Source of the DNA: Elsinoe ampelina
Taxonomy: Eukaryota
Assembly: GCA_010093995.1 (NCBI GenBank)
Contig: ML992507.1
Location: forward strand, 1,113,868 to 1,177,867
Direction of reading: 5' to 3'
DNA length: 64,000 bases
Of this stretch, positions 11,514 to 39,774 are shown in pieces. The position numbers and the translations under genes were made by a program. The notes under the pieces are model-generated. The model did no database searches. It was not told the origin of the DNA and worked only from the letters and a program-made list of their open reading frames with translations. Each line of letters starts with the position of its first letter. The first letter of the stretch is position 1.

Positions 11514-11879
11514 GTTAAAGAGATTACTAAGGTAGAGGCGTAAAGTTAGAGAGCTTAAAAAAGTACTAAGTCTAAAAAAAGTAACTAAGGTAATAAAGAT
11601 ATAGAGGTAGCTATAAGAGTAGCGACCGATACTAGTATTTAGTTTTATATAACAATTCTTATATTAATCAATTCTTTAGCAGATTTAGAGTTAATTAATA
11701 TATATATTGTTATAATATTTAGCGTATAATACCTTTATCTTAAAGCTTAGAGATCTATCTATATTAGCTTTACCTAGTGTAAGATAGGCTAAGATAGACA
11801 TATAATATAGATTGTACTTAATAAGGCACGCGGCAGTATCCGTGCTAGTTTAGCTACTTATAAGCTTATAATTTCTTTA

Positions 11880-12262: not shown

Positions 12263-15200
12263 TACGTTACGAAATCCCTAACGCTAGGGAGCTATATTAG
12301 ACTACTTCTAAGCAACTAACTTAGTTTAACTTAGTTTAATATAATTCTCTAGTTACCCCTAGGTCCTACTTAGAAGTAATATAGTTTTTCCCTATAGAAA
12401 TCTAAAAACCTCTAATGCGTAGTAAATAGAGACGGCCTAATAGTAGATAGCGTACTACGTGTATCTCTAATCTTAGTTTAAGCATTTCTTAGTTTACGAA
12501 GTAATTAGTTTATATCTACTCTATAAGCTTAATAATATTAATTATAGAAACATTCTATTACGTAGCTTACCTTGTAGTATATATTATATATATCTATATA
12601 TTATATAGACCTTGTAATTTGTCTACTACGTCTAGAAAATTATATAAGGTCGCTAGAATATATATATTACTTTATGTTCTACTTAACGCTACTCTTAATA
12701 ACGATATATATACTATCTTCTTATAATTCTATATCCTTATCTCTTAGTTCTATAAAAGTATCTCTATCTAGTAGATATCTATTCTCCTTAATGTCTAAGA
12801 TACTACTACTATACTTTAGGCTAATTCGGTACTATAAGACTAGTTTACGTAGTAGGCCTCTAAACTTCTTATATACAAAGGATAAAAAGTTTATCTATAT
12901 CTATATACCTAAGAAATTCTTCTACTATGCCTCGACTACTAGTAAATCGCTATTAAGTTGTCTATCTTAGGATAGTATAGCATATATATAATTAAGTAGC
13001 CCGGGTAAATATCGCTATTAAGTCTATTAATCCTCGTATATACTAACTATAACCTAACTTAGTTTAGTAGTAGTTAAAGTTATAACGAGGTTACTATTTA
13101 TATTAGGTATCTATACCAGCTATACTTCTATCGTAGAAGTTACTATAGAGCAATTTAGTACTTCGCTCCTATATATAAACTAAGTAGTACCTTAATATAC
13201 TATAATAGAGTATTTAGCCTTAATTAGACACTCTTCTTAATCTATTAGTATTAAACTTAAGAAGCTAATAGAAGAATTAAGCTTACCTCTTAAAAGGTAC
13301 TTAGTAGAAGCATTTCGTACCGGTGCTATATAATAGCTATTACCCTCGCTATTAGGCCTATTATTATATACCTAACTTCTCTATAAGTTAGTTCGAAGTT
13401 AGGTAGGCTAAACTAAAACGAGAAGGTATATATATACCTTTCCCTTATATCCTCTCTATCTAATAGTTTCTCTATAGTATTAGCGTAAAGAGATATATTT
13501 AACACTACTACTATAATAGTAAGTCTATTTCTCTTAATACACTTAGCAAAGCTAAGTTTTAGCTAACGAAGGATAAGAACCTATCTCGGGCTAATCTACG
13601 CTAGAAAGTTATTTTAAATACTTAGTCGGACATAATTAAGTTCTAAAGGTTCTATATATTTAAATACTAGTATTCTCTTAGGTAAGTAGAACTTAACTCT
13701 ATTTACTTGCTTAACTAAGAGTATATAAATCATTACTAGGAGAAAGGAAATAAGAAAGAGTATTAGTTTATTAAAGTAATAGCAAGTACTAGCTATTATA
13801 GCTAAGCCTATATATCTAATAAAGGCTACTCGGAAGGCTTTATATATTAAAGAACTCCTAAAGCATTTACGCTACTATATATAAGTAATTAATTAATAAG
13901 TATATCTAGTATATACTAAATCGCTATTCTTATATTAGTACTTTCTTTCCTCTAGTAGCCTATATATCTAATTTAGTAGCTTACTATTCTCTAGCCTCTT
14001 AGCTAGCTATTCGTAGTAGAGTATCTCGCTTACTATTTATATAATGTTATTATAACTATAGTAGAGCGTCTCTTAGAGCTACACGTATATTAATAAGTAA
14101 TTAGCTTTAGCTATGTAACTTACCTTACTAGCTATAACTATAGAAGGGTATTTACCTATAGTTCTCTATAGATAAAGTACTAGTAGCTAGTTACGGACTA
14201 AGCGCTAGTACTATATAATTCGTAGAAGTAGCTATTAATTGTCTAATATTAGTAATATTATATTATAATCTACTCCGATAGCTATACTTATATATAGATT
14301 ATTATATACTATCTCGAAAATGTTAAGATACTAGTTTAGTACATTCTATTACCTCTACTTTACTATCTTAACTAGTATAGAGGTTAACGTTAGGCTATTC
14401 TTGTTAGGTTATAGCTCCCTTAAACTCGGATTAAGAGTAGTAATGTCTAATTTATACCTTCTTCTTTGTCTTTAATATTATATTTATAGCCTATATAGTT
14501 AGCTTAGTCTCTCTTAATACTAAAGCCTTACTCTACTTTATCCTAGTTAAAATAACTTAAATTATTATCTTTAGAATACTTATCGGTCTTATAGTCTAAG
14601 CTATATAGGCGCTAACATGCCTAAGACATCTTAGTTTATAATAGTTCTAATAAAGAGATATATAGGTATAAGAGAGTTAGCAAGGTAAGCCGGAATAATA
14701 TATACTATAAGGGGGATAGATAGTTATCTTATATATGTTATAGTAACTTAGCGTTAGTTTAAGTTAGATAATAGCTTAGTTAGGTGTTTAAAGTATATAA
14801 CTTTCTTCTAATTAGAATTAGTTATATCTACCTATACTCTAAAGTAATCTTAACTAGTAAGGGTATTAAATTAGATTTATAGCTAGGTCTAACTCGCGGA
14901 GTGCTAATTACTAGAAGCTAAACTAAAAAAGAAAGCTACTTAAACTTACTTAGACTAAATACTTAAACTAAATATAGTATTTGTTATTAAGTTAAGTAAT
15001 AATTAGAGTAGAAATACATAGAGAGAAATTATAGATTAAACTTAGACTAAGTAATTATATACTAATTTAAAAGACTATAGGAACTAGCTATTATATATAT
15101 AGACAGGTAGTATAATTTATATAGTAGCTCCCTTATTAATTACATTAGTAGTTCCCTCTTTACTAAGTAGTATATCTTCTAAGTGCTAAAAGCATTAATT

Positions 15201-17073
15201 ACTTACTATCTCGCTATCTAGGGTGTTCGAATAAGATATGCTAGATAGAGTAGCTTATCTTCTACTAATTATGTTATAATAGAGAGCAGGCGTTAATTAG
15301 CTATTAGTAACTATATATAGTAATAGTAGAGTAGCACTATTAGTATAGCGTCGTATACTCTTGTTTAATCCGAATAAGCCTCTTAATACTCTACTAGTAA
15401 GGTCTATAGAGGCGACGCTAAACGCGTAAAAAGCTTTACTAATATACTTCCTAAGTATATTATTCTCTTACTCTAAGTATATTATTCTCTTACTAGAGTT
15501 GTCTAATTAACCTTACGTTCTTCTCTACTATTAATTACAATTAGCCTACTTTCTACTAAACAAGTATAATGTCTTTCTCTAGGAGTTACTATCTATTAAG
15601 CTATTTAGGCTACTAGGTCCTATGTTGCTTTTGCTAGCTACTAACGTAATTATACTCTTCTTCGTGTATATATAGTAGAGAGCTTCTAATTTAAGCCTCT
15701 AGCTAGTTAGGGAGACTGTTAGAAGACTATGCTTTAACACCTAAATAGATAAGAGAAGCCTATATACTTAATCCTATAGTCTAGATATTAGCCGCTAGAG
15801 AAACAAGGTTAGTATAATTAATATCTATACTTAAGAGCCTAGCCGAAAGATACTAATAGACTCGATAGATTAATAGTAGAAGAATAGATAAGTAATTCTA
15901 AAGGGCGATTTAGTTAAAAGGTAAGGAAGGATAAAGCGTAGTAAACGAACTAAAACTCTAAGGTTTAGTAGTAGGTATAGCTTAGTATAGATTACCCTAC
16001 TACTTTTTAGTTCGACTTAGTCTACTACTAGACTATTCTTCTTTATGCTTGCTTTAGCTAGATACTTTTCTTAATCTTGTTACCTTATTAGGATATAAAG
16101 AAGTAAACTATATAATATCTTAGATAAGATAATAGCCTTAAACTAGATAGTATTCTCTATTATAGCGAAATACGGCGTTCTATTATTCTTCTAACCTATA
16201 ACATCGCTTTGCTTATTATATATATAGTAGTCCGTTATAATTAATATTACTCTTAGCTAATTAAACTTAATATTTATATTCTCCTTAGATATAGTAGTTA
16301 TAGCTTTATAACATACAAGTAAAAGATCTTTAATTAAGTAGATAGGACGTATCTCTCTATCCTTATAAACTACTAATAGTATATTATCTAGTTAATTAGA
16401 GAGTAAAGGCACTTATAATTATAATTAGCAATCTAAGGATTTGTTCGAGGTAAGTATATTAGTACTATTCTACGCTCCTCTAGGCTTATATAATCTTAAG
16501 TATAACTATACCTACTAACGTCTAAAATTAGTACTTATCTTATAGACGAGAGTATAGAAGGTAGCTTAACTATCGCTACTCTCTAAGAGCTCTATTATAC
16601 GCCGAAACGTGCACTGAATATTATTACTATCTAGTACTACTAGAAGTACCTTCTTCTCTAACCTTCTCCTATTAGAAATTAATCTAAATATTCTTCTAAC
16701 TATGCCTTTACCTATTATAATATTCTCTAAGAGACTATATAAGTCTCTATAGCCTTTATCGTTAAGGGCGAGAGCTTACTTAATAGCTTTAATTAAGCAT
16801 ATTACTAGTTAATAAGAAGTAGATATAGGTATAGCTACGGAGAAGAGGAGAGAAAGAGAAGAGAAAGTAAAGGTAGAAGAGTAGTAGTATAGATAGCAAT
16901 TCGGTGTAAGTATTACTTATAATAGATAAGCCTTAGATCTTAGTTTACTTATAAGAGAGGCATACTAGAATTATACTTAGTTATAATTAGTTAGCCTAAA
17001 CTAACACTTATAGAACTATAAAGTTTAACGCGCTAAACTTTATCTCCTCTTAGTTTTGTTATATGTTTATTAT

Positions 17074-17874
17074 ATAGCGATATAACTATATTATAAATAC
17101 GATTCGTAATAACGCCTTAGTTTATACTCTCTACTTATACTAACCTAAACGTAGGCGTTAGCGTCCCTAGTATAACCTTTTCTCTCCTTTCTATTCGACC
17201 TTAATAATAGCTAGCTATCTATTATAGTAGATTCCTATGCCTAGTATACTACAATTATTAATTATTATATATACTATAGCGACTTTAATATTTACTTCTA
17301 CCTTACTGTCGCTACTACTTTTAATAGTATTCTCTATACTAGCTATGTTATGTTTATAGAATTAACTACTACTAGTACCTAGTAGTTACACCGGAGTAAA
17401 TCTATTATAGTATACCTCTCTATCTTGCCTACTACGCTGCTATAGGCTTAAGGGTATATAAGGAAACTCCGACACCTCTTTTTCTCTCTCTACTACCGCT
17501 GCCCTCTATAGCTTCCTTTATACTAGCTATGTATCATTAGTAGAATTAGCTACTATCTTTACCTAGTAGCTACAACTAAGTAAATCTATTACGGAGTATC
17601 TCTCGATCTTATAGATAGTACTACTAGGGGTTCTAGCGTATATAAAGAGAGTAGAGGAGCTAGCGTCTACTAGGAATTACCTGCCTTATAGTATAAGAAT
17701 GTTAAGGGGAGAATTATAGAGAAATAACTAGTATAATAAAGAGGAAGAGATAGAGGCATATCGTAGGTAAAGATATGTCTACTACCTCCTACTAGATAGT
17801 AGCTTACTATAGAGAGTATTATAGGCGAAGCTATATTAGTAGTATTCTCTTTTATAATTGCTTTTATAGTAGAG
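17074..17874 (+). repeat. ~800-bp direct repeat, copy 1 (copy 2 at 24247-25046)
   Basis: Colinear alignment by eye; differences mostly C/T and G/A transitions. Confidence 0.92.
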
Positions 17875-20800
17875 TTTTATTATTAGTAGCGCTTTATTAT
17901 AACTTTCTCGCGTTAGCGATATACTTCTTTCTATATAGATTATATACCTATCGCTTTAATCTCTCTCCTCTAACTAGTAAATAAAATCTCCTTATCTAAT
18001 ATATATAAGTATACTATATATCTTTCTTTATTCCTTATTATTTGTCTTATCTCCTATCTACTATAAAGATATTAAGGTTATTGCTTTATATAATAATACT
18101 CTTTATTAAATAGTCCGCTAGCTATTTAAAGTATATATAACTTTATATATAGTACTAATATATAAGTATTTAGTATAGTTAATTACTTCGATACTAATTT
18201 TCTATAATAATTAGTACTTATAATATCCTCTAATAGCTATGTTTTGTTTGCTTATCTAATTTACGCCCTATAATATTTATTAGTAGTAAACTAACTTATT
18301 TACTTTTAGTTCTAGTATCGACCTAATATTAGTAATTATTATATGTTACTATTAGCACGTACGAAATATAGACTTAGTTAACCTAGTTCACTTTTAGGTT
18401 AAGGCTTAAACTAAATCTTAGTTATAAGTATACTACTTACTTCGGTATACTATCTTAAATATAAATTTTATTATATTTAAGAAGTTACTACCTACTTTCT
18501 ATATAGTATTTTAATATTATACTAGGTAGTAGGTATTTATAATTACTAGTATTTACTCTATAGTACTTAACTTACTACGCTTAGTTCCTAGCTATATAAT
18601 CTTAACCCCTCTAACCTTACCTACCTTATATAACGCCTTTACTAGTAGATATTCTTACACTTATTAAATATATATAATAGTACTATGCTACTAAAGATAA
18701 AGAAGCTAAAGGTCGCTACTAAACCTATAGAAAAGATTCTACTTAACGACCTTACGCTAGCTCTTATTAAGAATATACTTCGCAATAATAATATTAGTAA
18801 GAAATCTATCTAATTCTTCTTTAATTAGAATAACTAGTAATACTCTACTACATTTATAAGGATAAAGGAAATAATCTTAAAAGTCTTTATAGAATCTAAT
18901 ATCAAAATTAAGAAACAAGATAGAAGCAAGTTATATAATTCTAAGGTACGTAAAGCATATCTTAAAATTAAAACTAGGCTACTAAATAGTACGCCTAACG
19001 ATTTTTAGCTCTTTATTAACTAACTAGATTAGAAAGATCTAGACTAGTTTAAGAAGAACTTATAGACTATAGTTAATATTAACAAGATAAAAGCTATATA
19101 GTAATTATTCTAAAATACTATATAATTAATAAAGGCAAATCTCCTATTAGTTAAAAGGGAAAGAACAACGTCGCTAGGTAAAGAAGGCACCTAGAGTCTA
19201 TATCCTTTAGCTATCTTGTCTATATAGATACTAATACTCTCCTAAGTAAGAACACTATCCTTAGAGAGATATATAACTTATATAAAGATAGGTAATAAGA
19301 GATTAGATTTATATATATAGCCTTATTATAGAATATTTAGCTTTAACTAGGGGCTAGTGTCTAATTGTATCTAGATTAACATTAAATTCGCTACGATCTA
19401 GATTATAGAGGTTATTAAAGTAGATACTATTCCGTATCTAACATTAAGAAAGAATATCTACGTCTACGACTTAAGAAAGTCTAGTGCCGGTAAGGACAAG
19501 AATTGTTATATTAATTACTACATTAGTAAGCTTAGGTAGATCCTTAACATTAGAGGTAATTACCTCTAACTCTACTAGCTCGACACGTATAACTCTATAT
19601 AAGTCTTTACTATTAAAGACTCTTTCGATCTAGACGCTACTATTACTAAGTATATTATAACTCTTATCCCTAGTACCTATAAGATCTTTCTCTATCTTAC
19701 TTCTTTTATAGTATCTATTAAAGATCTTCCTAACTTTATATAAAGTAAGTTTACTTCTTCCTTATTTATCTATATATACTAATACTTATAGACAACTCTT
19801 ATTAATATTATAGTAGCTAGTAACTACTTCCTATAGCCGAGGCTACTATAGAAGAGAACTTAGAAGTGTTTCTTACTCTTAAGAAGCTTTACTTTATAAA
19901 TATTAATACTAATAAGAAGCGTAAAGAAGATTAGTAGAAAAAGAATATTATAATATAGAACGTTTAATATCTATAATAGCGACTAAACTACTAAAGGTAA
20001 GAGTAGTAATACTACTATGTTTTATTTACTATTATGTTATTTATAAAACTATTTAGTTCTTAACTAATAAAGTTTTATTTAGCTTGTTCTACCCCTAAGA
20101 GGCTATAGCTCCTATAAATCCTATAATTTCTATTATTGTTATTAGAAGTAAACTTACTTAATAGTTCTATAACTATAGCTAGACAGATTCTAACTAACTT
20201 AGTAACTTAGTTCGGGGTATAGTCTTACTTTATATAGTTTTAGAAGAATATAGCTCCTTCTCTCCTACTAGAAGAATATAGCCTATTTAGACTATAGTAT
20301 ATATCGCCGAGGCACTATCTATGTTTCTACTGCTTTAATAGCTTAAAGAATATTATATAAGCTACTATATACCTAAGGCCGGCTATCTATCTAGATAAAT
20401 ATAATCTCTCGGAGCTCTCTAATACCTCTCCTAAGTTCTACTTTATTACTAGTAACTTCCTATAGCCCACCTAGCACACTATAACATATTAGAGTAAAGA
20501 GAGTAAATCTAAGAAGATAATAACTTACTTCTACTAATATAAGATTAATATTAGTATTAAAAAAGTAATATGTTCTTAATATTATTAATAATAGAAACAA
20601 AGTAATACTACTATAGATATAATAGACTAGGGCGTTTAATAATAAATAAAACAAGTTAGCGAAATAGGATCTTGTCCCCTATTATAGTAGAAGTAATAGT
20701 ACAAGTTTTAGTTCTATACCGAACTTAGAGTTAACTAAATTAAATAAGAATAGTATAGTACTATAAAGGAGCGCGTAGGTATTACTACTAATATAGTTAT

Positions 20801-20949
20801 TAGGCTTTACTCTTGTATACTAGTAAGGTTTATATATAGTATACTTAGAAGTTAATAAAGAATTCCCGCTAACTATTATTAGTTCTAGCTACTACCTTCT
20901 AATAAATAGTAAAGATGCTTTAGGTTAGGTTATACCTCTTAACTAAGTA

Positions 20950-22600
20950 CAAACTTAAGTTAGTTTAGTTAGCCTAAAACTAGAAATAAACTTATTTTAT
21001 ATTAGGGCGAATAAGTCCTTTAAGGGAATACTATAACGCCTAGCTATCTTATACTTCTCCTCGTTAGGCAATTACTACTTAGTATTAGTATAGCTCTACT
21101 AACTATATATATAGGTTTAGTATTAAGCTTAATATTTAATATAAGGTTAATTATACTAAGAGAAAAAGATTAGATATCTACTACTTAATAAAGGCAGCTT
21201 CGATATAGTAGAGCTAGTCTCTATCTATAGGCAGTAAAGACGTACCTATTATAAAGAATAAGAGAGAATAAACTAGATATAATTTAACTTAATATTACTA
21301 TATAATATAACAAGAGGTAGCTCTCTACCTATACGAAGGTAATATAAGAATAGTTAAAGCCTATCGTAGCCTCCTTTTCGTAAATATAATAGTTACTTCT
21401 TGTTTCTAGTTCGAAATCTTCGTATTAGTCCCTATATAGATAGCTAGACTTCTATTTATTCCTCTTAATATATATCTTAACCTAATTATAAAACATCTAG
21501 TAGCTATACTTACTTTTATGTCTTATTAGGTTTGAGATATTTCTAACTAGAACTTTAAAGTTTTAATCGAGGATAGATATCTTATTTCTTTAGTAGTACT
21601 ATATATATAAATCGCTTCGTATATAGGGGAGTATACCTTAACTACAATTATAGAGACGCTATATAGGAGAGAGTAGTATAGAATAATATTTATATTTAAT
21701 AAGCAAAAGAAACCTAGAGATAATTATACTAGATATTGTTATAAGCTTACTTTATTTACTCCGCTACCTTGCTAGTATAGAAAGAGTAATAATATTAACT
21801 AATATTATAGTAGAGGCTATAGACACTCCTTAGACTTTATATCTCGAGCCGAAGTAGTAGACAAGTATATAGCTAGTACTACGCTAGATTAGAAATATAG
21901 AGCCTTTATGTTATTATTCCTAAGATTATAGAATAGAAAGCCTATAGTTAGAAGACTAAGAGGCAGTAAGGGATTATTTATACGTATAACTCTATAGCGC
22001 TAGTAGTAGCTATAGTAGTTAGTTTAACTTAGTTAGTCTAGTTCGGTTATTACTAACAAGAGAGCTATATCTATAATAACTTAAGAGAATCCCGAATAGC
22101 CGAGCTATTAGGATTAGTAAGGGCACTAAAGTTATTATTATTAATTATAGAGAGAAGTCTATAGTAAGCTACGTAAGTATTATCGAGGTAGCTATATTAA
22201 AGTAAACTTACTTCGAGAAGGCTACGCTAGTTAGTTCGTAACTAGAAATAGTATATAGTTCTATAACAAGTAGAGTACTAGTGCTTCTACCTTAATAGTG
22301 TAACTTTGCTTAATACAAAGTTAGTATATAGATCTAATTATTATAGTAGGCTTCCGATAGTGCCTTAGAGAATATAATATTCGCTAGTATAGATATAATA
22401 ATAGCGTTTATGCTTAAGCTAACTATACTATTCTATTAGCTAAAGAAGTAGGTTAACTATAGCTATAATACACTAATAATAATATAGAAAGTTATATAAG
22501 ATAATATAGCAAAGTAGACAAACTAAAAGCGTAGTTATTTAAACTAATAAAGGAGTAATAGCAAATTATTAGTTTATTCTTATTAAGACCGGTTAAGAGA
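20950..22600 (+). pseudogene. Second, more diverged SNF2-like helicase relic (C-terminal part clearest)
   Basis: 21880-22460 aligns with 29690-30270 at a ~7810 offset (e.g. gcctttatgttattattcctaagattat vs tcctttatagtattatttctaagattat; shared GTTAGT...CTAAY.AG intron-like segment). Confidence 0.6.
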
Positions 22601-23094
22601 ACACTTACAATTTTCACCTAAAAAGTACTAGTTTTAGTTTAGTAAACTAATCGACTACCTCTAATAGATTAACTATAAGTATAAACGACCTAATGTTATA
22701 TAGCTAAGGCGTCTTTATATACTACTATTACTATTTTTTCGTAGAGGCTATTTATAACTAACTTATTATAATACTAGCGACAAGTTAAGATATAAGATAG
22801 TAAAAGCTATAAATTATTTACTAGCTAAAATTATTATACCTACGTAGTACTTCCTATTTTACAATTGCTATAAAAGCCTCTACTAAGGACAATAGCGTAA
22901 TAATAGCTAATTAAGTATAGTATTTAACATCGTCCTTAAGTAAGAGATAGCTAACAAACTCTATCGCCTAGATATATTAGAGTAAACTCTATCTTAACAT
23001 GTCTAGTACTATAGCGTAGATACAATTTTAGCTTTAGTCTACCGACGCTATATAATAGCTTAGTCCTATTAGCTCTACTACGAATTATAGTAAA

Positions 23095-23544
23095 TAAGAA
23101 CTAAACTAAGTAACGAGGTAGAAATAATAGCCTATAGCTAGTATAGAGTGTCCTTCCCCCTTTGTCTACTATATAGTATAGTATAGTAGATAATCCTCTT
23201 AGTCTCTTTACTAACCTTAACTCTTAACCTCTAGTATATAGAATAGATAGTAATAGTAATAGTAGGCTTAATAGCGACATACACAAGGAAGAGAAGAGTA
23301 TAGATAAGGTTATAATAGAAGGTATATATAAGAAAGAGTAAGTAATTACAGCAAGTATAACTAGTAGTACGTCTATAGAGTAGAGTACTAGAAGGTTGTT
23401 CTTATCTAGTAGAGCTATATCTAATTATACTACGTTCGAGATAGTAACTAGTATACTAGCTAGTAGCGAGGAGTTAGTAATAGATATAGTTTATTCTTAG
23501 TTTATATTAACTAATCTTATCTAGATCTCCCTAAGTCTATAATA
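23095..23544 (+). repeat. ~450-bp direct repeat, copy 1 (copy 2 at 30904-31353); truncated 5' part of the Plavaka gene
   Basis: Near-identical apart from transitions; both copies end ctagatctccctaagtctataata. Confidence 0.9.
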
Positions 23545-23919
23545 CATCCTTTACTCCGAGCAATTAATAAGATATAGCTTAGCTAAGGACTCTTAGCTTA
23601 GTACTTTAATGTTTAATAAAAGGCAAGCTACTAACTTAGATAGATAATTTTAATTCAAGTTAGATCGTTGTAGTAGAAGCGCCTTTTAGTAGAATACACT
23701 TACTACGGACTACTAGCCCCTATATAATATTCTAATAAATCTACTTCTACCTATGTAAGGGTACTAAAGATATATCTAAGTTACACACGCGAAGGCTATA
23801 GTAGTCTAACTAATAGCAAAATAGTGTTTACTAGTAGGAAGCTTACTCGGCTTAAATTTAGTAGTATAAATTGTTGCTTTACTCTATCTCTAGCATGTTA
23901 TATATAGCAGTAGTAGAGG

Positions 23920-24118
23920 GCAGCCGGCAGGGGACGGCTAGTAGTTTATTACGTCGAACTAATAATTTCTTAGTTCTCTCTCTTAAAGTTTAAAGATAAT
24001 TTAAAATTTCGACCTAACCGTAGCTAGTAGAGGACAGCTAGTAGTTTATTACGTTAAACTAATAATGTCTTAGTCCTCTCTCTCGAAGTTTAAGAATAAC
24101 CTAAAATTTCGACCTAAC
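23920..24118 (+). repeat. 100-bp tandem duplication
   Basis: gctagtagtttattacg...aaaatttcgacctaac occurs at 23937 and 24037. Confidence 0.85.
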
Positions 24119-24246
24119 TAGATTAAGCACTTCTTAGAACTTAATTATATAATGCTATTTAATTATATTCTTCTCTAAAGTTAGGTATTATATGTTTAGA
24201 AACTTGTAATCTTAATAGCATTATAAATGCGTTATAAACTCTATTT

Positions 24247-25046
24247 ATAGCGATATAACTACATTATAGATATAATTTACTATAATACCTTAGTTTACGC
24301 TCTCTACTTATACTAACCTAAATATAAGTATTAGCGTCCCTAGTATAACCTTTTTTCTTCTCTCTATCTAACCTCGATAATAGCTAGCTATCTATTATAG
24401 TAGATCCTCTACCTAGTACACTATAATTATCTATTACTATATATATAATAGCGACTCTAATATTTACTTCTACCTTGCTATTGCTACTACTTCTAATAGC
24501 ATTCTCTACACTAGCTATATTATGTTTATAGGATTAACTACTACTAGTACCTAGTAGTTACGCCGGAGTAAATCTATTATAGTATATCTCTCTATCTTAC
24601 CTACTACGCCGCTATAGACTTAAGGGTGTATAAGGAGACTCCGATACTTCTTTCTCTCTCTCTACTACTACTACCCTCTATAGCTTCCTTTATACTAGCT
24701 ACGTATTATTAGTAGGACTAGCTACTATCTCTACCTAGTAGCTACGACTAAGCGAATCTATCGCGGAGTATCTCCTAATCTTATAAATAGCACTACTAGG
24801 GGTTCTAGCGTATATAAAGAGAGTAGAGAAGCTAGTGTCTACTAGGGATTACCTGCCTTATAGTATAAGAATATTAAAGAGAGAATTATAGAGAAATAAC
24901 TAGTATAACAAAGAGGAAGAGATAGAGAAATATTATAGGCAAAGATATGTCTACTACCTCCTACTAGATAGTAGCTTACTATAGAGAGCGTCGTAGGCGA
25001 AGCTATACTAGTAGTATCCTCTCTTACTATTACCTTTCTAGTAGAG
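24247..25046 (+). repeat. ~800-bp direct repeat, copy 2
   Basis: Matches 17074-17874. Confidence 0.92.
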
Positions 25047-25555
25047 CTAGGTAAGGAATAAAGCATATTTATAATTATGTAGAATATACTATTAATCGCC
25101 TATTCTACGGAATATATAGCCTTTACTCTACTTTACTACTTAATTCTATATATAGCAATTATAAAGTCTAGATAATTAGATAGTAGTATATTACTTTCTT
25201 TGTTTCTTTACTAGTATCTATAAGCTATACTATACACTATATATACTATACTCTTTATTCCGCTATAGGCTACTAACTACCTTCTATTTATGTTCTATTA
25301 CTATTATCCTTCGTATATAAATACTAGTTTCGCTATTAAAATATTGTTTAATTATTTTATATTAACTGCTACTATATTTCTTCTATTTATTAGACTATTA
25401 TTCCTTAAGATCTACCCTAAATACGACAATAGTATCCTTAGTATATATAGTATATAAAATAAAAGGTAACTAAGTACATAGACTATAGTTACTCTTAGTT
25501 TAGTGTCTAAACTAAGTAATTTACTATTATATATATACTATATCTAGTATACTAC

Positions 25556-26018
25556 TGTCACGAACCGTCTAAACATAGTCTACATTAGTAGTCTAAGCTA
25601 AGCTAAGAACGAGGTAGTTCTACTTCTATAGTAGTATAGTACTAAGGTAAGAGTCGGAGAAGGTATGTCTTATAGATAATAAAGTACAATTAGATAGTAT
25701 TATAAAGGCTAGCCTTAGTAATACTAGTGTTTGCTATCTAGACAAGGTTAACTATAGTACTTACATAAGGTAAGGACTGTTCCTATATACTTATGTTCTC
25801 TATCGCGTACTCTATATACTCTATATACTTCGTAGCGAAAGCCGGGAACAGCATAAAGTACATGTCTACTAGTAACCTACGCGCTCTATAGTCTCTAGGG
25901 TAGAGCTGCTAGAGAAGATAGAGAACCGGGTAAACGTCGGGCTAGGTCACGTAATAACCTTAGCGGTTTAATTAGTCCTAACGTCCCTATGCTCTAGCTG
26001 TTCTACTAGTTCGTAACA
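25556..26018. mobile_element. Solo LTR (463 bp) with 5-bp TSD ACTAC
   Basis: TGTCACGAAC...GTTCGTAACA termini; ACTAC at 25551-25555 and 26019-26023; partial second copy at 5-205. Confidence 0.92.
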
Positions 26019-27899
26019 ACTACTACGTGCTTAGTTTAGAGCCTAACCTAAGTTAACTAAATTTAGGTTACTTCTCTCCTTAATTGCTTTAGTTTACCTT
26101 TGTTTATACTCTCTTATATATAAATAAATAACTTATATAGCTCTCTAGTATTTCTTTAACTTCTTTAACCTTTCTTTTAAGCGCTCTTTACTTAAATATC
26201 TCCTCTTTAGTTAGGTTTTAGTTAGGCATATATTATAAAGTATATAGACCTACTATGTTAATAAATTCTCTTCTTAATTCTTCTAAACTTATAAATATAT
26301 AATACCTTTATAGAATCTCTTTTTTAATATCTACTATACTTACTTAACCTATTTACTAGATATTATTCTAAGCTTTATTTATAGCATATACTAAGCTTAT
26401 AGATGTATATAATATATCTAAGAATTAGTCTAATAGCGCTAGTATAGCTACTAATAATATTCCGCTCTATAAAAGATCTTCTATAGAAATTTAAGTATAG
26501 CTCGATAAAAACTTTAAGATTAAGAGATTCTTCCTTAAATTCTTTAACTAGAATAACGACTAGTATACTACTATACGTATAAGAGTATAGAAAGAATATA
26601 AGAATACCTACATAGTTCTAGGACTTAAATATAAGAAACCTTAGAATAGTAATATTAATATAACTATAATTATAAATAACATTAAAACTTCCCTACGATA
26701 CTCTTAGGATAACTATACGAAGATCTTCTTTTAAAGACTATACTATTAAGACTAAGACTAGTTTAAGAGGAATATTAGAAACTATAACAATATATCTAGT
26801 TATAATATTATTAAAGATTTTGTCCTTACTATTAAGGCGTAAGAGCTTAGAAATAAGAAGAATTAGACTAAAGTAGATAAGAAGGCTAATCCTAAGAAGT
26901 ATATTAGAAAGCGCCTCTCCGCTACCTAGTCTAATAGTAGACTCTCTAAAAGATTAAAGACTTCTATACTTAGTAGCGGACTTATAAGTATAAATATTAA
27001 TTACTATACTAGTTAGCCTATACATTAGTAGTAAATACTAGAGGACATGTCTTGTCTAGTCTAGAGTATTATTAATAAAACTATTATTAACTTTATAATT
27101 GTTAAGTAATTAAATATTAGCCTAGGCGTAATTATAAAGAGAGAATGTTTATGTCGTCTATAGGTATTTAGTCTAAGAATTTTAAGGTTATATCTAGGGA
27201 ATTATAATCTAAACGTATATAGCCTTAATAAGATTAGGCTATTCCTAAAGGAGAAGAAGTTAGTTAGTAATAATATTATTCTTGTATAGATAAATTATAT
27301 AGAGCTATATAACATTCTACTTATCTTAGACAACTACGACCTACGTGCTACTATAATTAACTATATTAACTTCCTAGTCGAAGGTAGTAATATAATCTTT
27401 ATCTATCTTATACCTAGTATAGATCTAGTTAAGAAGCTTCCTAAAGAAGTACTTTATAAGTTTAATACTTAGTTTAACTTAGGTGTATACTAATATACTT
27501 AGTTAACTCTCTTTAGTATTATAATAGTTAAAAGCTATTAACTCTAGTCTAGAAGGAAGAGAAAGAGGAACCTCTAGCCTCTCTATCTTTAGCTAAGCAC
27601 CTACTACTACATAAACCTACCTCTAAGAAGTAACCTAGCTCTCTACTACCTAATAAGGATAATACTACTATTAACTATTATTCTACTCGAGTAATAGAAG
27701 ATAAATACTATAAGTAATACTAAGACAGTAATTAGTATCCTTTTATAATTATACCTAGCAAGGAGCAAGTAAGGTACTATATTCCGTTAGTCCCTAAGAC
27801 ACTATCTATACCTATCCTAGCGCTTATAACTTATATATTTAATAAGACTCTTAGTAGCTTAGACTTTGTTAAACTTTATACTATAAACGACAATAACGA

Positions 27900-30400
27900 C
27901 AAGTAAACTAGTAATAATCTAGCTAACTAAAGCTTTATCCCTATAGGCACTAGAATCGATTACTAGTCTAAAGAGTTCTAGAAGAGAGTCTATAACTTTA
28001 TAGGCTTTAAGAAAGATATCTACTTACCGAATACAAGTATATAGTGTTTTAGTTAGAATAAGAAGTATCTAGTCGAGGTAGTATAGATATACTTAGCGCT
28101 TGTTACACTTAAGAAATACCTTAAAGGCTACCTAGTATTTATATTTACATATAAGATAGAATTTAGAAAGACTCTAATAGAACTCTTCTTTCTCTTACTA
28201 ATTTAGAACTTAAATAAAAAGGTTATCTAGGATGCTAATTATACTACTATACCTAAGGATAAGTAGAGTAAGTACTAGAAGATAAAGACACTAGTTAATA
28301 AGCTATAGCTAGATATTGCTTCTATAGATACTATTAGCTAAAATCTAATTATTAGCGGATTAAACGTAATAAAATAGTAAGCGCAGGAGATATAGAAGTT
28401 TATACCTAATACAAAGGTTGTTCTATACTAGGGAAGAATATTCTAAGCTATATAAGAAGATAAGTATAGCAATATATATAATATAGACACTTTAATTTAC
28501 AAAGAGGATCTGCCTATAGGCTACTACTAATAGAAGTCTTAGCTAATAGATAAGTCTAGTAAGCCTATTAACACTATTATAGTCTTATAACTAGTCGATA
28601 TACGTAAGTAACACCCCTAGACCTTATAGATAAATAATTAGTTCTTCTTTACTACTTATAATACTATAATCTACTACTTCCTTAGTAAGAATAATATAAA
28701 TACTAAGGATTAGAACTTTATTCCTAAGAGACAAGAGAGAAAGCTAGGGTTTACGCCTATAAACTAGGCCGCTATTATCTTTAATAAGTTCTATTAGGTC
28801 ACTAGCTAGAAGACGTAGACCTAGTATTATCTAGAAATACTACCGGGGAGGCCTTTTATACTAGACATAAGCGGGATGCTATTTATTAAATACTTAAACG
28901 TAGTAGCGTTCTTAATAGCGGCTATATATAAGGACTTTAGATTAGAAAAGCTTAATATAAATAGAAGTAGAATAGGAGAATTTAATAAGAACTATATCTA
29001 TAAATCTAAGTAGAAGCTAACTAAGGCTAAGAATAATAAATGTTAAGTAACACTAAAGATAACACTAGATAAGACTTAATAAGCTATTACTAACAAGCTT
29101 AACTTCTAAATAGTATTAGACTATACCTTTATAATTAATAAATAGTATAAGGCGAATAACGACTCTAGTAAGTTTAACAAAAAGAGAAGTATATAGTTTA
29201 TAGAAAAGATTATAGTAATAGTTAGTAAATAGAGCACTATCCTTATAAATATTCTTATTAAGATAAATATAGACTATATCTAGAAACCTTTCGATACTAC
29301 TTCTAGTCTACTAGCTATTAGAGTTCTACTATATTCTACCTTTAACCTAGAGATTACTATTAAGAATAAGTATCTTTATAGTCTTATAAATACATAGAAG
29401 AAGATTAAACAGGATATAGATAAGAGTATATAAGAGACAATCGACAGGCAAAAGAATAAATCTAATAAGCCTAAAGTAATATTAGAGACAATCCTTAATA
29501 AGAAGACTAAGGAGCAAATACTAAGCCTAGTTACGCCGCTACTGCTTTTCTCTATGTTTCTTACTCTTATAGATATATTCTAGGACAATCCCGTAGTTGT
29601 AGAAGAGTTTAGTAACTTTACTATTAAGTTTACCTATAAAATTATATATAACTCCTCGGAGATAGCGCTATAGTAGTATATAGACAAGATCTATGCTAGT
29701 TCTTAGATAAAGGTCCTTTATAGTATTATTTCTAAGATTATTAAGTAGAATATCTCTTATTTAAAGGAGCTAAAGAGGTAAGTAATTGTCTATGCATTTA
29801 CACTGTTAGTACTAGCAGTTGCTACAATAGTTAGTTTAGTCTATTTAGTCTATTTAGGTTATTACTAATAAGGGTATAGTATCTAAAATAGCTCGAGAAG
29901 CACCTAGACAGTAAAGCAATTAGAATCGATAAGGATGCTAATATAGTTATTGTCTACTATAGAATAATATTTATACCTGCCTATATAGACATCGTCGACG
30001 TAGCTATATCTAATAATACGTTTATTAAACCTAACAGGCTAGAAGGCTTAAGGATCTTAATTGCCTAGGGTAGAGCTATTAAGACTAGTCTTAATCTAAA
30101 CCGCTTCGATACTATAATCTTACTTAATATAGCATTAGTGTTATAATCTATTCTTTAGTATCTAGCTTAGGTCCGTAGGAACATTAAGTCTTAGAAAGCT
30201 AACTATATAGAGGCGTTTATAATAAAGCTAATAGCTCCGTTCTATAGGCCTCTAGAATAGCTTAATAGTAGATAGAGTAGGCTATTAATAATTTAGAAGG
30301 TTATCTACGAGGAAATAGAGAAGTAGAAGGCAGAGATCTAGAAACTTTAATAAGCTATAGTAAAGAAGAACACAATTGTTATAGATAATAATTAAGATTA
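27900..30400 (+). pseudogene. RIP-inactivated SNF2-family helicase/ATPase-like gene; bounds approximate
   Basis: A single frame carries IFTYKIEFRKT at 28141 (de-RIP ~FAxEMGFGKT, motif I), NLIISGLNVIK**AQEI*KFIPNTKVVLY*G (motif Ia), FFFTTYNT, *AAIIFNKFY*V at 28765 (WAAIIFDEFHQV, DExH) and ILDISGMLF (motif III-like). Confidence 0.75.
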
Positions 30401-30839
30401 CTAGATAATAGTCTAACTATATTACCTAAAAATACAATTCTTTAGTTTAGTAGACTAATTTAGTTCCCTGTATATATTAAACTATCTTTTAGGTTACTTA
30501 ATATAATATAGTATCTAAACGTTTTCTACTTCCTACTATTGCTAAAATTTAGCTAGCTAACTCTAACTACAAATTTAGATCTTAAGCAATAAACATAGAT
30601 ATACTAAGGTAAATTAGTAAATACTCGGCCTATAGGATCTAGTAGAGGCCTTATCTAACATCTGCTATATTGCTAAAGGAGAGAGCTACTAATAAGTAAT
30701 ATAGCGTAAGTCTTACTAGAGTAACGTAGTAATAGACATCTATATAGAGACGACGCTAGTAACAATCCTTGCTTGTTTAATAAGAGAGAGTACTTACTAT
30801 CTAATAAAGGCTAACGAGGTAGTATTACTAGTAATATAT

Positions 30840-33800
30840 AACATAGTTCGCCGATGCTAAATAACCTACTAGTCTACTTTACTCCGCTGCGAATAATAGT
30901 AACTAAGAATTAAACTAAACACTAGAGTAGAAACGAAAGTCTATAGCTAGTAGAGAGTATCCTTTCCCCTTTGCCTACTATATAGTATAGCATAGCGGAT
31001 AATCCTCTTAGTCTCTTTACTAACCTCGACTCTTAACCTCTAGCATATAGAACAGATAGTAATAGTAATAGTAGGCTTAATAGCGACGTATATAAGGAAG
31101 AGGAAAGTATAGACAAGGTTATAATAGAAAGCATATACGAGAAAGAGTAAGTAATTATAGTAAGTACAACTAGTAGTACATCTATAGGGCAGAGTACTAG
31201 GAGGTTATCCTTATCTAGTAGAGCTATATCTAATTATACTACGTTCGAGATAGCTACTAGTATATTAGCTAGTAGCGAAGAGTTAGTTATAGACATAGTT
31301 TATCCTTAGTTTATATTAACTAATCTTGTCTAGATCTCCCTAAGTCTATAATATATATACCGACACTAACGATAAACTAAATTATAATTAGTTAGGTAAG
31401 ACTTAACTAAAGGAAGTCTTTATTAGCGGCATAGACGTAGGTCTTACCTAGTAGCTTATAAAGGAGAAACTTAGTAGAGCTACAATTACGTAATTGCTTA
31501 AAGACCTACGTATATAACCTCTAGTAGAAAGCCTTAGTTAGCAAACTACGAATGAACTAATAGAGAAGATAGAGAATTTAGATACGGGCGGGGGTATTAA
31601 TAGCTAGTAGACCTTAAGCTTTATACTAAACACTAATCGTAGGCCTAAAAGACACACGTTCTAGTATCTAGATATTCTTATAGCGATACGCTTCTTGCTT
31701 AGCTATTACAGTTTTATAGTAGATATAGACTATAGCCTATATAGAGTCTTTATAGAAGCTATCGAGAGTAAGCTACTACAATAAGTATATACTAAAATAG
31801 TAAGCGGCAACTAGTAGTAGAATATATAAAAGCGACTTAGAATACTAGGGGCTACTACTATCCTATTAATTGTCGTAAGTGATTAGACCTAGGTAATAAA
31901 CTATTAAGGAGATCTTATAGCATATACTATCTATCTATTATTAGGTAACCTAAAGGCAAAAGTACGTAATAGTAACTACTAGCTAGGGTAGTTACTAATC
32001 GGCTTACTTTCTATTATTAAAGATAGTAGTAATATCGTTAAGGAGAAGACCTACTATACTTATATAAAGAAAATCTTTAATACTATTATTAATTACTACT
32101 CGAGAGAGAGGAAAATAATCTTCTATATAGATAGAAAGAGGTAGAGGTGCTTCTCTATACTTGCTACTATACCTACGAATTATGCTAAATAGGTTACTAT
32201 AACTAGTGTAAAGTTACTATATTATTATATAAGTTGCCTAATTAGCAAGGATAAAAGAGAGGACCTAGTAGTTACTACGCCGTTCCGAACTTACTACTTT
32301 ATATAGTAATAATAGTGCTTTTAGAGAGAAGCACGTAAGAGTTAGTAGTAGAGCAAGAAGATAGATATAAGCTCTTAGGTTTATATAGTTAGTTACTTTA
32401 CGTAGGATCTTCTATATACTAATATTTACTACGCGATAGTACTAGATATTCTATACTAACTTCTTAAAGGCGTTTTAATACATGTCTTACACTAGACTTA
32501 AAAATTGCTCTAGGATTTAATACCTATATAGAGATTACTACGGTATATAAAGGCTAGAGAGACTATATAGCGAATAGGCTACTAGCGCTTAGTAAAGATT
32601 TAAGAAGATTATACTTAATATTATTAATAAGCGTTTCGATAGTATACTAGTGTTTCCTAGTATTCGATACTTCTTGTACTACTCGGCTATTAAGCAATAG
32701 ATAGGTTAAGAGTAGAAGAGTATTATACGCTAGATACTTCTAGTATTTATACTACTACTTAAGGAGGTTAAGGCGCCTTAAGCTATTAAGTTTATACACG
32801 CACTAGTCGACTTTATATTACTAGTAAACTATAAGACCTATAACAACGATATACTTTAGTATATTAACCTTACGCTCTTTAGAATAAATAAGTATAAAGA
32901 AATCTTCTAGGCCTATTATAGTAACAAAAAAGAAAAGGGCAACTTTAACTTTCTAAAATAGTACTTAATAATACATTTTTTAAAGGCTATCTATAATTTT
33001 AAAGTAGTTACTAGCCTTAATTCTAATTATTTAAAGTATAATTATATATGCCTTATTAAGGATGCCTTTAAACTTATAAACAAGAAGGCTAGATAGAAAG
33101 ACTAGGTTACTACTTATAATACTAAACTAGTAAACATATTAGTAGTATTTAATAACCTCTCGAAGTTAGTTAGGCTATCGGCTACTAAACTAATTAAGAT
33201 CTAGAGTACGCTAGTTAGTATAAGTAATATAGTAAATGTTACTTCTTAGTTTAGCTAGCCTAGCGCTAAGAGGAGAGCTATATAGCGTATAGTAAGAGAA
33301 CTAGAGGCACTTATTAACATACTACCTAGGCTATTACTATAGCAAGTAATAGTGGTATTTGTCCGCGAGGCTTGTTAAGGTATAGCTAATATAGGCTCTA
33401 ACTCGAGAACTAAATACTCTAATTAGTTTAATACTAAACTAGATTCCGACAGACTCGAACTAGATTCTTCCTAGGTAAGCAACCTCCGTATTAAGTTCTA
33501 CTATTCTTTAAAGTATAAGAAACTATCTAACTATAATCCTAATAATCCTAATACGAACGAATAAGACTTTATTTAGTATATAACTAACTAGTAAGAGATA
33601 CGTAGTAATAAGAGGTAAGACTAGCTCTAGGTACAAGAATAGATAACAAATAATAAAGGCACTAACGGAGCATTACCTAATAGCCTATAAGGTAAGTTAC
33701 TAGCTTATATTGTGTTTATAATAACTATAGAGGATAGCTTCTAGTCTAGTAGATTAGGCTAGCGTTAATACCTATACTATATAGGAGCGCTAGTAGATCT

Positions 33801-34134
33801 ATATTAGCCTACTTAGCCGGATAGAGTAGCTAATCGAGAGTATAGTATAACACTAATTAAGCCTTAGACAAATTAACACGCGCGAGCTAGATAGAATACT
33901 CTTACTAGTAGATATATCTACTCTACCTTGTAAATCTACTATAGTATCTACGTCGTGCTAGTAGATAAAATAAGGCTATATAGCTAGATATATATTAATA
34001 ACATAGCCGACTTTAACACATATAACATGCTATAGAATAAGTTATAAGAGTCTAAATAGCTTTACCTAGCTAAGGCTTCGAAACGAGAGAGGTTAAGATT
34101 CCTAGGTATAGTTAGCAAGCGTAGTAAGCATTAA
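30840..34134 (+). pseudogene. RIP-inactivated Plavaka-type transposase; bounds approximate
   Basis: GATTILLIVVSD*T*V...IYLLLGNL (~31850); LATIPTNYAK*V (AxxADYxEQ); LDILY*LLKGV (PDILHQLLKGV, 32442); KRFDSILVFPSIRYF..KQ*IG*E*K (QWTGxExK); NFNFLK*Y (FNFPKxH); KYNYICLIKDAFKLINK (ExxH..KDAF..TN). Confidence 0.85.
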
Positions 34135-36362
34135 TAAAGCTAGAGTACTCCTTTTATAGCTAGAACAATTATCTCTTATATCGATAGTCTAACGCTTAGG
34201 TATACTTAGGTTAACTACTAGACTATATTAGGTAGGCAAGTTATAATAACTTCCGTAGGTATTACTCTAACTAGTTAGTTTACACCTGTATATTATTAGG
34301 TTAGTCCCTGAACTATATAGAGTTTATAGCCTAAGGTGCCTTATATAGTTTTTACGCTAAAGAGTTAGTCTATTCCTTTACTAATTATAATAGCTTAGGA
34401 AACTATAGCGAGGCGTTATAGAAGTTAGTCTTTAAGATACTTAAGACATACCTTAAGTATTTAGTAATAGTAGTAAAAGACTTAGGTTAGTAAGTTGTCT
34501 TTAAGTTAGTTTTACTAACGGAGTTGTCTAAGAGGAAAGTTTATTCTCTATAATAAGTTTACTAATAAGACTCTAATATAGATAATAGTACTTTACTCTA
34601 TTTGCTATTATATTATAGAGATCTACTCGATACTACTAGAGTAGTTACTAAGGACTTATTCCTTTCTATCTAATAAATAAGATCTATAATAACACTAGCT
34701 TAGAAGACCTACTAGGGAACATTCTTATTAATCTCTATATATACTATACACGGGAAACAAGTCGAGGAAGAAGCTGCCCTTTAGTATAGCGAGTAGCCTC
34801 TTCCTTATCTTCTAAAGCCTTCTCTATATCTATGTAGGTTATAAGTATTTCCTTATAAGATTATTAGTATATAATATATATATAACAAATCCTGTCTATA
34901 AGATTATATACTAGATTATCCTACATGCGCTATTACTATAACTACTACTTAGTAGTAGTAATAGTAGAGCGGTAAGATATAGTAGAAAAAAGTGTTATTA
35001 TACCTACCTCCGAGAGAGAAATATCTCTTTTCTCCTCTATATCTTTCTCCTTGCTCTCTGCTATAGTAAGGTATACTATAACTAAAGCTACTACTACTAC
35101 TCCCTCTATAACTACTATTACTCGTATACGGCTATAACTGCGAGTTATTACTAGAAGCTTAGTACACGTCGGGGTAACTTTATCTTTAATATATAGTAAT
35201 AAAGTGCTATAATCTTAACCTAGATACTACCTCTATTACCTCTCCGATGACTACTATAACTAGCGCTAAGAGCTAGTAAGGCAAGAAGCGTACTACCTCT
35301 ACCTTCGCTAGTGTCTATAGCTATACTAGTATTAAGCTTAGTAAGGTAGAGAAGAAGAGTAAGAAGTAGAAGAAGCCTCTTATTATTACTAATTACCTTC
35401 TTACTAATAACCTTATAGATAGGTAGTTAAGGTAGATCTTAAACTTCCTAGAAAGAGTATTTACTTCTCTACTATAACTACCTTCGAGCTGTTATTTAGA
35501 CTACTATATTCTTAGTACTATCTCCGGGGCTACTTAGATAGTATACTAATGTCTATTAGACCTTACTTTTCTAGGTAGTCTTTTATAGCTCTAGAATTAT
35601 CCTTCTAGTAGGTATACTATTCTATATTAGTAGACAAGGGATTAGCTTAGCCTAAACTAAATGTCTATTACATTTCCTATACCTATCTATATTAGTGTTA
35701 ATCTTCTTAGAATAGGCTATAGCCTCGCTACTATAGCTACTATTAACGTAGTGTATCTAGCTTCTATTGTTATTCTCTTTCTACGTTACTAACGACTTCT
35801 AAGTACTAGAATAGGTCTATAGGTATTTATACTTAATATTATAACTATGCTTAGCTATAATAATTAAGTTCTTCTCGGAAAAAGCTTTCTTATATCTATA
35901 AGCCTAAGTTATAAATACCTCTCTATAAGCTTGTTTTATATTATTAATAATATAGGCCGCTAGATAATAGAACGTATAGGCTATAGAGCAATAGAGGTAC
36001 TTTTCGTTAGTATTAACCTTTATTGCTAGCTATATAGTTACGCGAAAGTGCTTGTCTTTAGAGATATCTAACACCTTAATAGATAACTAAGTAGAGATAA
36101 TAAAATAGAGTTAGAATAAGTATATATTAGTTTAGGGTTTTATATTATAAGCTAGAGAATAAGGCGTATAATGTTTACTTTTCTATTATAGCGAAAGCGC
36201 TTCTATACTAAGCTTTAATAATGTAGAGTATATACTTCCTCTCTATCTAGTAGATAAGATCTATAATAACACTAGCTTAGAGAGCTCTCTCCGGAAGATG
36301 CTTATTAATTTCTATATCTATTCTAGTTGCGGCAAGTAGAGCGTTTATCTAATCTAAGGCAC

Positions 36363-36436
36363 GTATAGTATATTTAACTAAAATTAGGTAGGTATAGTGT
36401 ATTTAACTAAATTTAGGTAGGTACGGTACGTTTATA
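36363..36436 (+). repeat. 29-bp tandem subterminal repeat (~2.5 copies)
   Basis: gtatagtRtatttaactaaaWttaggtag twice plus a partial third copy, ~80 bp inside the right TIR. Confidence 0.85.
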
Positions 36437-36517
36437 TCGACCTAACGTAGTTAAACTTAGTTTAATATAGAGAAACCTAATATTCTAACTCTCTATACTT
36501 AGGACTTTCGTAACGTA

Positions 36518-39420: not shown

Positions 39421-39774
39421 AGAATTTAAGCTATCTTAGTAGTTAAATAGACTCGCTTATACCCGCGCCTAATTTAGCTATTATATAGATCTATCTCGTA
39501 ATCTAGTTCGCCGCGGGTAAAGCTAATAGAGGCCACATTTTAAGGGCTAATATATCTACCTTATATAGAAGTTACTAGTGTAATATATATATTAAACAAT
39601 AGAAGCAATAAAGCTAAATCAATTAATATAGAAATTGATATATAAATATATATATAGAAGGTAAAGTTATCTATAGCTACTACCTTCTTAGTCTTATATA
39701 TTCTAGTTATAAAAACCTTAGGCTTAGTACTAACCTTAGTAAAATTATTCCTTAACTTCTATAAACTCTTTAAC

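Follow-up and report, generated by a model that had tools for sequence, protein, structure and literature searches.

An SNF2-family ATPase gene killed by RIP inside a giant transposon

We analysed a 64,000-nt stretch of Elsinoe ampelina DNA (here denoted the window) and found that it holds the relic of an SNF2-family ATPase gene killed by RIP. This gene almost certainly lay between the terminal inverted repeats (TIRs) of a 23.8-kb unit and moved with it, encoded all seven motor motifs, had its frame under selection and has Plavaka-linked relatives elsewhere. Taken as a whole, the best explanation is that it is the SNF2 gene of a giant cut-and-paste element of the EnSpm-related Plavaka family and that its product was a motor helping transposition; we put the probability of this reading at about 0.6. 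The window copy is dead and has no present function.

The gene comprises two exons (Table 1). An earlier note on this DNA had read four motifs in one frame, in the order expected of SNF2 proteins, and these are indeed found on the + strand at 28150-28794. Aligned after splicing, motifs I, Ia and II-VI follow one another in family order over 28150-30179, the set including the Walker A lysine, the DExH box and both motif-VI arginines; motif Ia is without its usual proline. The main exon carries 43 stops within 28141-29829, and the RIP that the note had called heavy is evident over the SNF2 stretch from a TpA/ApT ratio of 1.7-2.0 and a GC content of 0.28-0.31. The restored residues GFGKT and DEFH are backed by real copies among the 24 aligned: Walker A reads IGFGKT in one copy and EFGKT in one (1/24 each), the DExH box of other copies reads FDKFH, FNEFH or FDEFY, and G-F-G-K-T as well as the D, E and H of the box are each kept by single copies. 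The M of the proposed EMG is still a guess, as 0/24 copies have it and all read I.

With stops read as X, the translation gave no match in Pfam, in the PDB or among 1.84 billion representative proteins, and none in two word-seeded searches, in which only 3,946 and 8,000 candidates were scored, so that absence there is unproven. Since the raw translation finds nothing in databases, a RIP-aware test was required, which weighs, for each consensus codon, a mixture of the codons that could have stood there before RIP. The host SNF2 profile was built from 25 intact host SNF2 loci (25 of 30 matches). Scored in six frames over the 24-kb element consensus, the host N-lobe profile has a single peak of 27.9 bits, which ends at 28915; the next-best place reaches 9.2 bits, 30 codon shuffles at most 15.2 and reversed profiles 9.4. 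The profile together with four less-mutated copies gave 31.8 bits, and a plain hmmsearch of the consensus in six frames gave E=6.8e-6. With a generic host C-lobe profile the relic reached only 14 bits, a score within the null, and a motif V-VI profile likewise stayed inside it. The note had made its claim depend on an SNF2 HMM match after RIP correction and on homologs other than unlinked host genes; under RIP-aware scoring the match is there, and the closest homologs are not confined to unlinked host genes (see below).

The notion that motifs were read into AT-rich RIP debris is refuted by these data. The blank raw searches would suit it, as would raw BLASTP of exon 2 against the transposon-linked protein of locus L162, with an E-value of only 0.006. 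Against it stand the seven ordered motifs, the key residues in real copies, the clean intron, scores beyond those of the controls and a codon-usage model, in which 450-nt windows of the main exon each carry 21-51 bits of coding signal (16-19 bits on the last exon). Removing the 50-nt intron makes the relic collinear with L162. The position of the intron in motif IV is common to the relic and locus L163, in a comparison with L163 alone. The intron is absent from the earlier note, as are the termini of the element, the other SNF2 cassette, which is decayed, and the earlier publication on Entons treated below.

Table 1. Features of the transposon copy and its SNF2-like gene, in window positions.
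Feature	Position	Strand	Remarks
Whole Plavaka-type (Enton-like) DNA transposon copy	12265..36515	+	24,251 bp; about 23.76 kb minus solo-LTR insert
Left 2-bp target-site duplication, TA	12263..12264	.	copy comparison
Left terminal inverted repeat	12265..12324	+	starts CGTCAC pre-RIP; first 10 nt perfect, then imperfect
Probable minus-strand gene(s), no known family	12600..16600	-	weak RIP-aware signal at ~12.6-13.3, 13.8-14.2 and 15.9-16.6 kb
Cassette 1, paralogous to cassette 2 in tandem, diverged	17074..23568	+	between near-identical repeats A and B; self-comparison
ORF-A paralog in cassette 1	18565..19800	+	coding signal; 30-44% identity to 26.5-27.5 kb
Decayed SNF2 paralog, cassette 1	21400..22514	+	linker and C-lobe recognisable; tblastn 33.6%, E=1.6e-11
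Solo LTR-like insert, TG...CA, 5-bp ACTAC duplication	25557..26018	.	gap at this site in all other copies
ORF-A, upstream coding segment, no known family	26300..27480	+	separate gene or 5' exon of SNF2 gene; 11-29 bits per window
SNF2-like ATPase main exon, motifs I, Ia, II (DEFH), III, IV	27562..29829	+	start approximate
Motif I	28150-28173	+	SNF2-like ATPase relic, aligned with host and transposon SNF2 proteins
Motif Ia	about 28372-28395	+	SNF2-like ATPase relic
TT box	28642-28659	+	SNF2-like ATPase relic
Motif II (DEFH)	28768-28794	+	SNF2-like ATPase relic
Motif III	28858-28875	+	SNF2-like ATPase relic; beyond the earlier note's list
Motif IV	29782-29799	+	SNF2-like ATPase relic; beyond the earlier note's list
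Phase-0 intron, 50 nt	29830..29879	+	polymorphism between copies restores GT donor, branch site and CAG acceptor
SNF2-like ATPase last exon, motifs V and VI	29880..30390	+	spliced C-lobe matches L162 helicase C-lobe; end approximate
Motif V	30075-30098	+	SNF2-like ATPase relic, 3' of intron
Motif VI	30159-30179	+	SNF2-like ATPase relic, 3' of intron
Repeat B, acidic coding stretch	30890..31377	+	similar acidic ORF precedes L162 transposase
Plavaka transposase relic	31365..34040	+	PF18759 match 31548-32490, E=2.8e-23
Probable minus-strand gene, no known family, converging on transposase	34750..36100	-	coding signal up to 23 bits
Right terminal inverted repeat	36456..36515	-	copy comparison
Right 2-bp target-site duplication, TA	36516..36517	.	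copy comparison

Ends, copies and surroundings of the element

From the RIP the note had concluded that the gene was multicopy or embedded in repeats, and both are true: the SNF2 gene region exists in at least 24 copies, every copy read being RIP-dead, and lies inside a 23.8-kb transposon. The Plavaka transposase stands where the note had put it, downstream on the same strand, with the PF18759 match about 1.2 kb away and scoring 83 bits against a cut-off of 26.3. Among 20 copies scored of 60 candidates, 19 others match positions 27000-34500 at 91-92% identity. Homology between copies begins at about 12263 and stops sharply at 36515-36522 in 17 of the 19. The 2-bp flank duplication matches in 14/14 copies with both ends located (20 examined), as TA, AA, AG, TC or CT, and the remaining six have a gap, an insertion, a truncation or too little flank. 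The first base of the terminus is C in 13 of the 14.

Most copies are full length. They differ by 8.4% transitions versus 0.087% transversions (190 pairs), indicating that the element amplified whole in a recent burst and was then mutated by RIP. A second subfamily has four members, of which three measure 23.8 kb and the fourth 16.56 kb. In the 28.3-Mb fungal genome, 25 of 26 matches to the 5' region of the SNF2 gene sit 3-6 kb from a Plavaka match, and all 28 Plavaka matches carry 18-26 stops. A copy of the SNF2 upstream region at G000:C15:643708-645106, near a contig end, has no Plavaka match listed nearby. At G000:C10:312789-336583 (L002, L009) one copy has apparently inserted into another, in opposite orientation, at a point ~20 bp within the left terminal repeat of the latter.

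The RIP block covers 11-41 kb of the window, with a GC content mostly of 0.24-0.33 and a TpA/ApT ratio of 1.6-2.4. Around the element lies an outer RIP-mutated repeat (10195-12262 and 36518-41071), whose left and right kilobases are inverted copies at about 69%, each side having 3-4 close genomic copies; inside it, 36664-36957 and 38590-38883 form a 294-nt inverted repeat pair (71%). A 30.8-kb element proposed by a 45-kb repeat scan was rejected, because copy comparison showed that the outer repeat is separate. To the right of the RIP block are host genes for a protein kinase (44415-46613) and the HIRA/Hir1 histone chaperone (59133-61892). Outside RIP regions of the host genome we also noticed an ORF with an SNF2 N-lobe only, followed by C2H2-like repeats (L125, G000:C7:857257), and an SNF2 N-lobe gene with two stops (L126, G000:C10:498389).

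A second cassette and further coding segments

The two tandem cassettes are bounded by repeat A (17074-17874 against 24247-25046, 95%) and repeat B (23081-23568 against 30890-31377, 90%), and their interiors match at 25-48% in tblastx. The 16.56-kb copy lacks roughly the length of one cassette, the loss of which would account for this form. The SNF2 paralog of cassette 1 scores 22.4 and 16.6 bits in the RIP-aware test against a null below 9; its motif VI arginines and N-lobe motifs were not found (N-lobe at most 11.8 bits versus 9.2). A 99-bp tandem duplication is found between the cassettes, at 23920-24118.

A single-cassette unit has about 5-6 coding segments, two of them with an identified family. 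Repeat B is probably a 5' exon of the transposase gene, and near 32595 the transposase of the window copy contains 7 inserted nt that are private to it. For one part of ORF-A (27050-27480) pN/pS is 0.56 (p=0.09). Pfam gave no match for the part of ORF-A tested, for the gene at 34750-36100 or for the left-end 3.3 kb of another copy, which corresponds to the genes at 12600-16600, and no UPF1-like helicase was found inside the element (at most 9 bits). Homology of ORF-A to orphan ORFs of loci L163 and L168 was rejected (hhalign probability below 1%). The first bases of the solo LTR-like insert resemble the terminus of the Plavaka element itself, and the LTR recurs at the window start (12-208) and, at other sites, in several copies.

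Purifying selection on the SNF2 frame

Selection was measured from transversions only, which RIP cannot make, in a comparison of the two subfamilies. The SNF2 frame was held by purifying selection between them: pN/pS is 0.69 on the main exon (p=0.05) and 0.27 on the last one (p=0.015), the pooled value being 0.62 (p=0.011), and shifted frames of the gene give 0.95-1.36. Both indels inside the gene keep to threes (+3 and -3), and the four just beyond it, at 30385-30544, are +1, +1, -2 and +1. The transposase is more constrained than SNF2, with pN/pS of 0.38 and 0.07. Its transversion pS is 0.03 versus 0.085 for SNF2, and this synonymous distance of about a third suggests exchange between the subfamilies.

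SNF2 genes beside Plavaka transposases in other genomes

The note had asked whether intact homologs lie next to Plavaka genes in other fungi, and they do: on other contigs of fungal type, intact SNF2 genes adjoin Plavaka transposases. A search with the transposase copy least damaged by mutation yielded five proteins, four of them intact at 37-40% identity, one of the four from Polychaeton citri. A metagenome set was retrieved by alignment of transposase relatives, and the best 80 of 399 confirmed transposase loci were analysed, of which 32 have an SNF2 profile match. At loci with at least 8 kb of upstream sequence, SNF2 is found in 27 of 35, versus about 1% expected from host gene density; 24 of these 27 belong to one repeat cluster, so the positives are not independent. 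Grouped at 80% DNA identity, the 80 loci form 23 transposase clusters, six of them with SNF2. In the seven clusters with at least 5 kb upstream, SNF2 is present in four and not in three, and two more are positive on shorter flanks. The transposases that show the linkage mostly have 24-42% identity among themselves. In the largest cluster the repeat is at least 13 kb long and breaks off sharply on the right, mostly with TGATG; a TIR search inside single metagenome loci bracketed no whole element. In the E. ampelina genome itself, a third, distant Plavaka family has an SNF2 C-lobe remnant at one of its two loci (L141, 24.9 bits versus a null maximum of 8.0).

L162 carries the closest intact transposase relative found, with a Helicase_C ORF about 1.8 kb upstream on the same strand, its N-lobe cut off by the contig end. 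Among 33 proteins this is the best match of the relic C-lobe, at 31.6 bits versus 11.9 for the best host protein, and the two are collinear over about 200 residues (score 96 versus a shuffled maximum of 53). Whole-motor z-scores are 18.0 for L162, 8.7 for L163 and 4.6 for the best host protein. The relic N-lobe, by contrast, has a host gene and not a transposon protein as its best single match (19.7 bits), and a transposon N-lobe profile gave only 18.1 bits on the relic versus a shuffled maximum of 16.6. Intact L168 alone fails to match the relic, thus not all Plavaka-linked SNF2s are close to it.

Of the tree that the note had called for, one part stood: in a C-lobe tree the relic joins L162 at 91/62, with a long-branch warning. 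Placement among the remodeller subfamilies (Snf2, ISWI, CHD, INO80) did not follow, as there the relic sits on a very long branch with open forks. All transposon SNF2s form one clade with support of only 33/89. The term remodeller-like is thus conjectural: the trees put the relic in no remodeller subfamily, and intact relatives are bare motor domains in Pfam. L168, with the same gene order and orientation, has an intact 669-aa SNF2 ORF holding only PF00176 and PF00271; HSA, chromo, bromo and SANT/SLIDE domains were found neither in this ORF nor in the L163 pieces. The AlphaFold prediction for L168 from its single sequence had a pLDDT of 33.5, too low for use, and a viral-contig scan with L168 found no relative.

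Locus L163 has two further features. Directly downstream of its SNF2-linked Plavaka transposase is an intact UPF1-like SF1 helicase with CCHC zinc knuckles (L163:13247-17182), the sole such case among the 80 loci (best 80 of 399). Orphan ORFs flank its SNF2 gene (L163:2094-3323 and 7042-7761) and have a common C-terminal domain, for which a PB1/ubiquitin-like fold is a lead only, with atlas feature scores below 0.9.

Possible function of the transposon-borne motor

A bare SNF2 motor without a reader domain is a double-stranded-DNA translocase that displaces bound proteins. Tentatively, we take the SNF2 protein to be such a bare translocase serving the transposition of its own element. At the cost of ATP the motor might free the target or the far-apart ends of nucleosomes and other proteins bound there, or might alternatively strip the transposase complex after strand transfer; after the recent burst, RIP would have wrecked every copy read. 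The decayed paralog of cassette 1 and the constraint on SNF2, weaker than that on the transposase, count against a helper role. Nor is SNF2 obligatory, given the three of seven clusters that have no match and the many Plavaka elements described without SNF2 in the passages of PMC12730594. In the parts available of PMC3520738 and PMC3627910, a transposition role for SNF2 in such elements had already been suggested.

A helper of transposition seems likelier than a remodeller directed against silencing, as the note had imagined, which would keep the chromatin of the element open or interfere with RIP, meiotic silencing or DNA methylation at their pairing or heterochromatin steps. We regard this as unlikely, even if other Plavaka cargo is directed at chromatin, namely TET/JBP in fungi (PMC12730594) and, in red algae, genes for a methylase/SET protein and a 2OG-oxygenase (bioRxiv 2025.02.11.637652), as far as the available passages go, and even if the faster divergence of SNF2 than of the transposase and its mosaic history would fit an arms race. 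Intact relatives are without a chromatin-reader domain, SNF2-carrying relatives occur also in contigs of normal GC content, and, judged by the stops in every Plavaka match, SNF2 gave the E. ampelina family no rescue from RIP. A Rad5/Rad54-like motor might instead promote template copying across the 17-24-kb excision gap, giving more copies and fewer internal deletions, as would suit the prevalence of full-length copies and the UPF1-like helicase gene beside the L163 transposase. Yeast Rad5 is the best PDB match of intact L168 (E=2e-17), and nine transposon rows are found to the Rad5/16-like side in the full SNF2 tree, in which L162 is misaligned and the forks are open. The PDB margin is small, however, with an archaeal SNF2/Rad54-type protein at 1.4e-15, and the Pfam result for L168 contains no RING domain; we hold such a repair role to be less likely still.

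Improbable, and largely refuted, is the idea of a captured host SNF2 gene that brought the element no benefit. Weak constraint (pooled pN/pS of 0.62), decay of the second copy and the lack of SNF2 in several Plavaka clusters speak for it, but there is no close host source, as the L162 C-lobe finds host genes only at E-values of 1.4e-4 or weaker; the two subfamilies have preserved the SNF2 frame, and the linkage is seen again with very distant transposases and in three families of the E. ampelina genome. Help in transposition thus ranks ahead of counter-silencing, gap repair and passive cargo, in that order. A wider proposal, which we offer as a speculation somewhat below the helper role in likelihood, is that Plavaka is the Enton lineage and that its SNF2s may form an old, transposon-specific motor subfamily, which would have spread through fungi together with the transposase and supplied an ATPase dedicated to transposition or anti-silencing, by which 17-24-kb elements could move whole, with cassettes swapped and duplicated between families. 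The intact natural homologs L168 and L163 make the function of the motor assayable. If the motor was needed for the movement of giant elements or for resistance to defence, this would be a transposon that handles chromatin with an ATPase of its own.

Comparison with known systems

As a rule, a cut-and-paste transposon of eukaryotes codes for just one or two proteins, as stated in the available part of PMC3520738. Published Plavaka elements are grouped with EnSpm in the CMCT clade, with PlavakaA and PlavakaB termini defined by Kojima 2025, and their cargo in fungi includes TET/JBP (PMC12730594, passages); the term SNF2 occurs 0 times in the text and supplement of that paper. The present element is like them in its PF18759 transposase, short TIRs and 2-bp target-site duplication. 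Its termini, CGTCA..TGACG, agree with PlavakaB (CATCA..TGATG) at 4/5 positions, the mismatch being inexplicable by RIP, and TGATG is also the usual right end of the large SNF2-carrying metagenome family; PlavakaA termini (TGT..ACA) are not those of the element, as shown by its first base. It differs from Plavaka elements in the published passages in carrying SNF2 and not TET/JBP, in its 23.8-kb size and in a terminus that matches neither motif exactly. Plavaka copies are known in Tuber (PMC12581995, in part). The passages of PMC12581995, PMC5751038, PMC4592977 and PMC10799480 make no SNF2-Plavaka link, and the pairing appears in no title or abstract start of the open literature searched, a scope outside which most subscription papers fall.

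Giant red-algal Plavaka with PAG1-3, of 17.4-19.1 kb, carry methylase/SET, ParB/2OG-oxygenase and orphan genes (bioRxiv 10.1101/2025.02.11.637652). They are like the present element in giant size and in several accessory genes thought to be directed at chromatin, and unlike it in that the passages of this source report no SNF2 cargo. The fungal AcademH and KolobokH transposons, which carry a RecQ/DEAD-like helicase (as cited in the passages of PMC10799480), likewise have a superfamily-2 helicase gene beside the transposase, but both the helicase type and the transposase superfamilies differ. With host SNF2 ATPases (PF00176 and PF00271; Rad5/Rad16-like, Rad54-like and remodellers) the relic has motifs I-VI in order in common, whereas it sits on a very long branch and its intact relatives are without detected accessory domains.

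The closest likeness is to the fungal Entons of V. Kapitonov, which together with Intons were described in a 2012 meeting report as encoding 5-6 proteins that are conserved and as derived from En/Spm and IS3EU ancestors (PMC3520738, in part); a passage of Bao and Jurka 2013 (PMC3627910) names an SNF2 helicase in both. Compared by description only, the likeness lies in fungal hosts, EnSpm-type cut-and-paste ancestry, an SNF2 helicase and several extra genes, and the difference in that neither passage names Plavaka or describes a tandem second cassette. The present element is RIP-marked and fungal, has an EnSpm-related Plavaka transposase and holds its SNF2 gene inside, and it is very probably of the kind that Kapitonov called Entons. 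As SNF2-carrying, EnSpm-derived Entons have been on record since 2012, it is probably a new example of a little-described kind, and the locus ties the 2012 report to Plavaka, adding element ends, a copy number, the structure of the gene and signs of selection.
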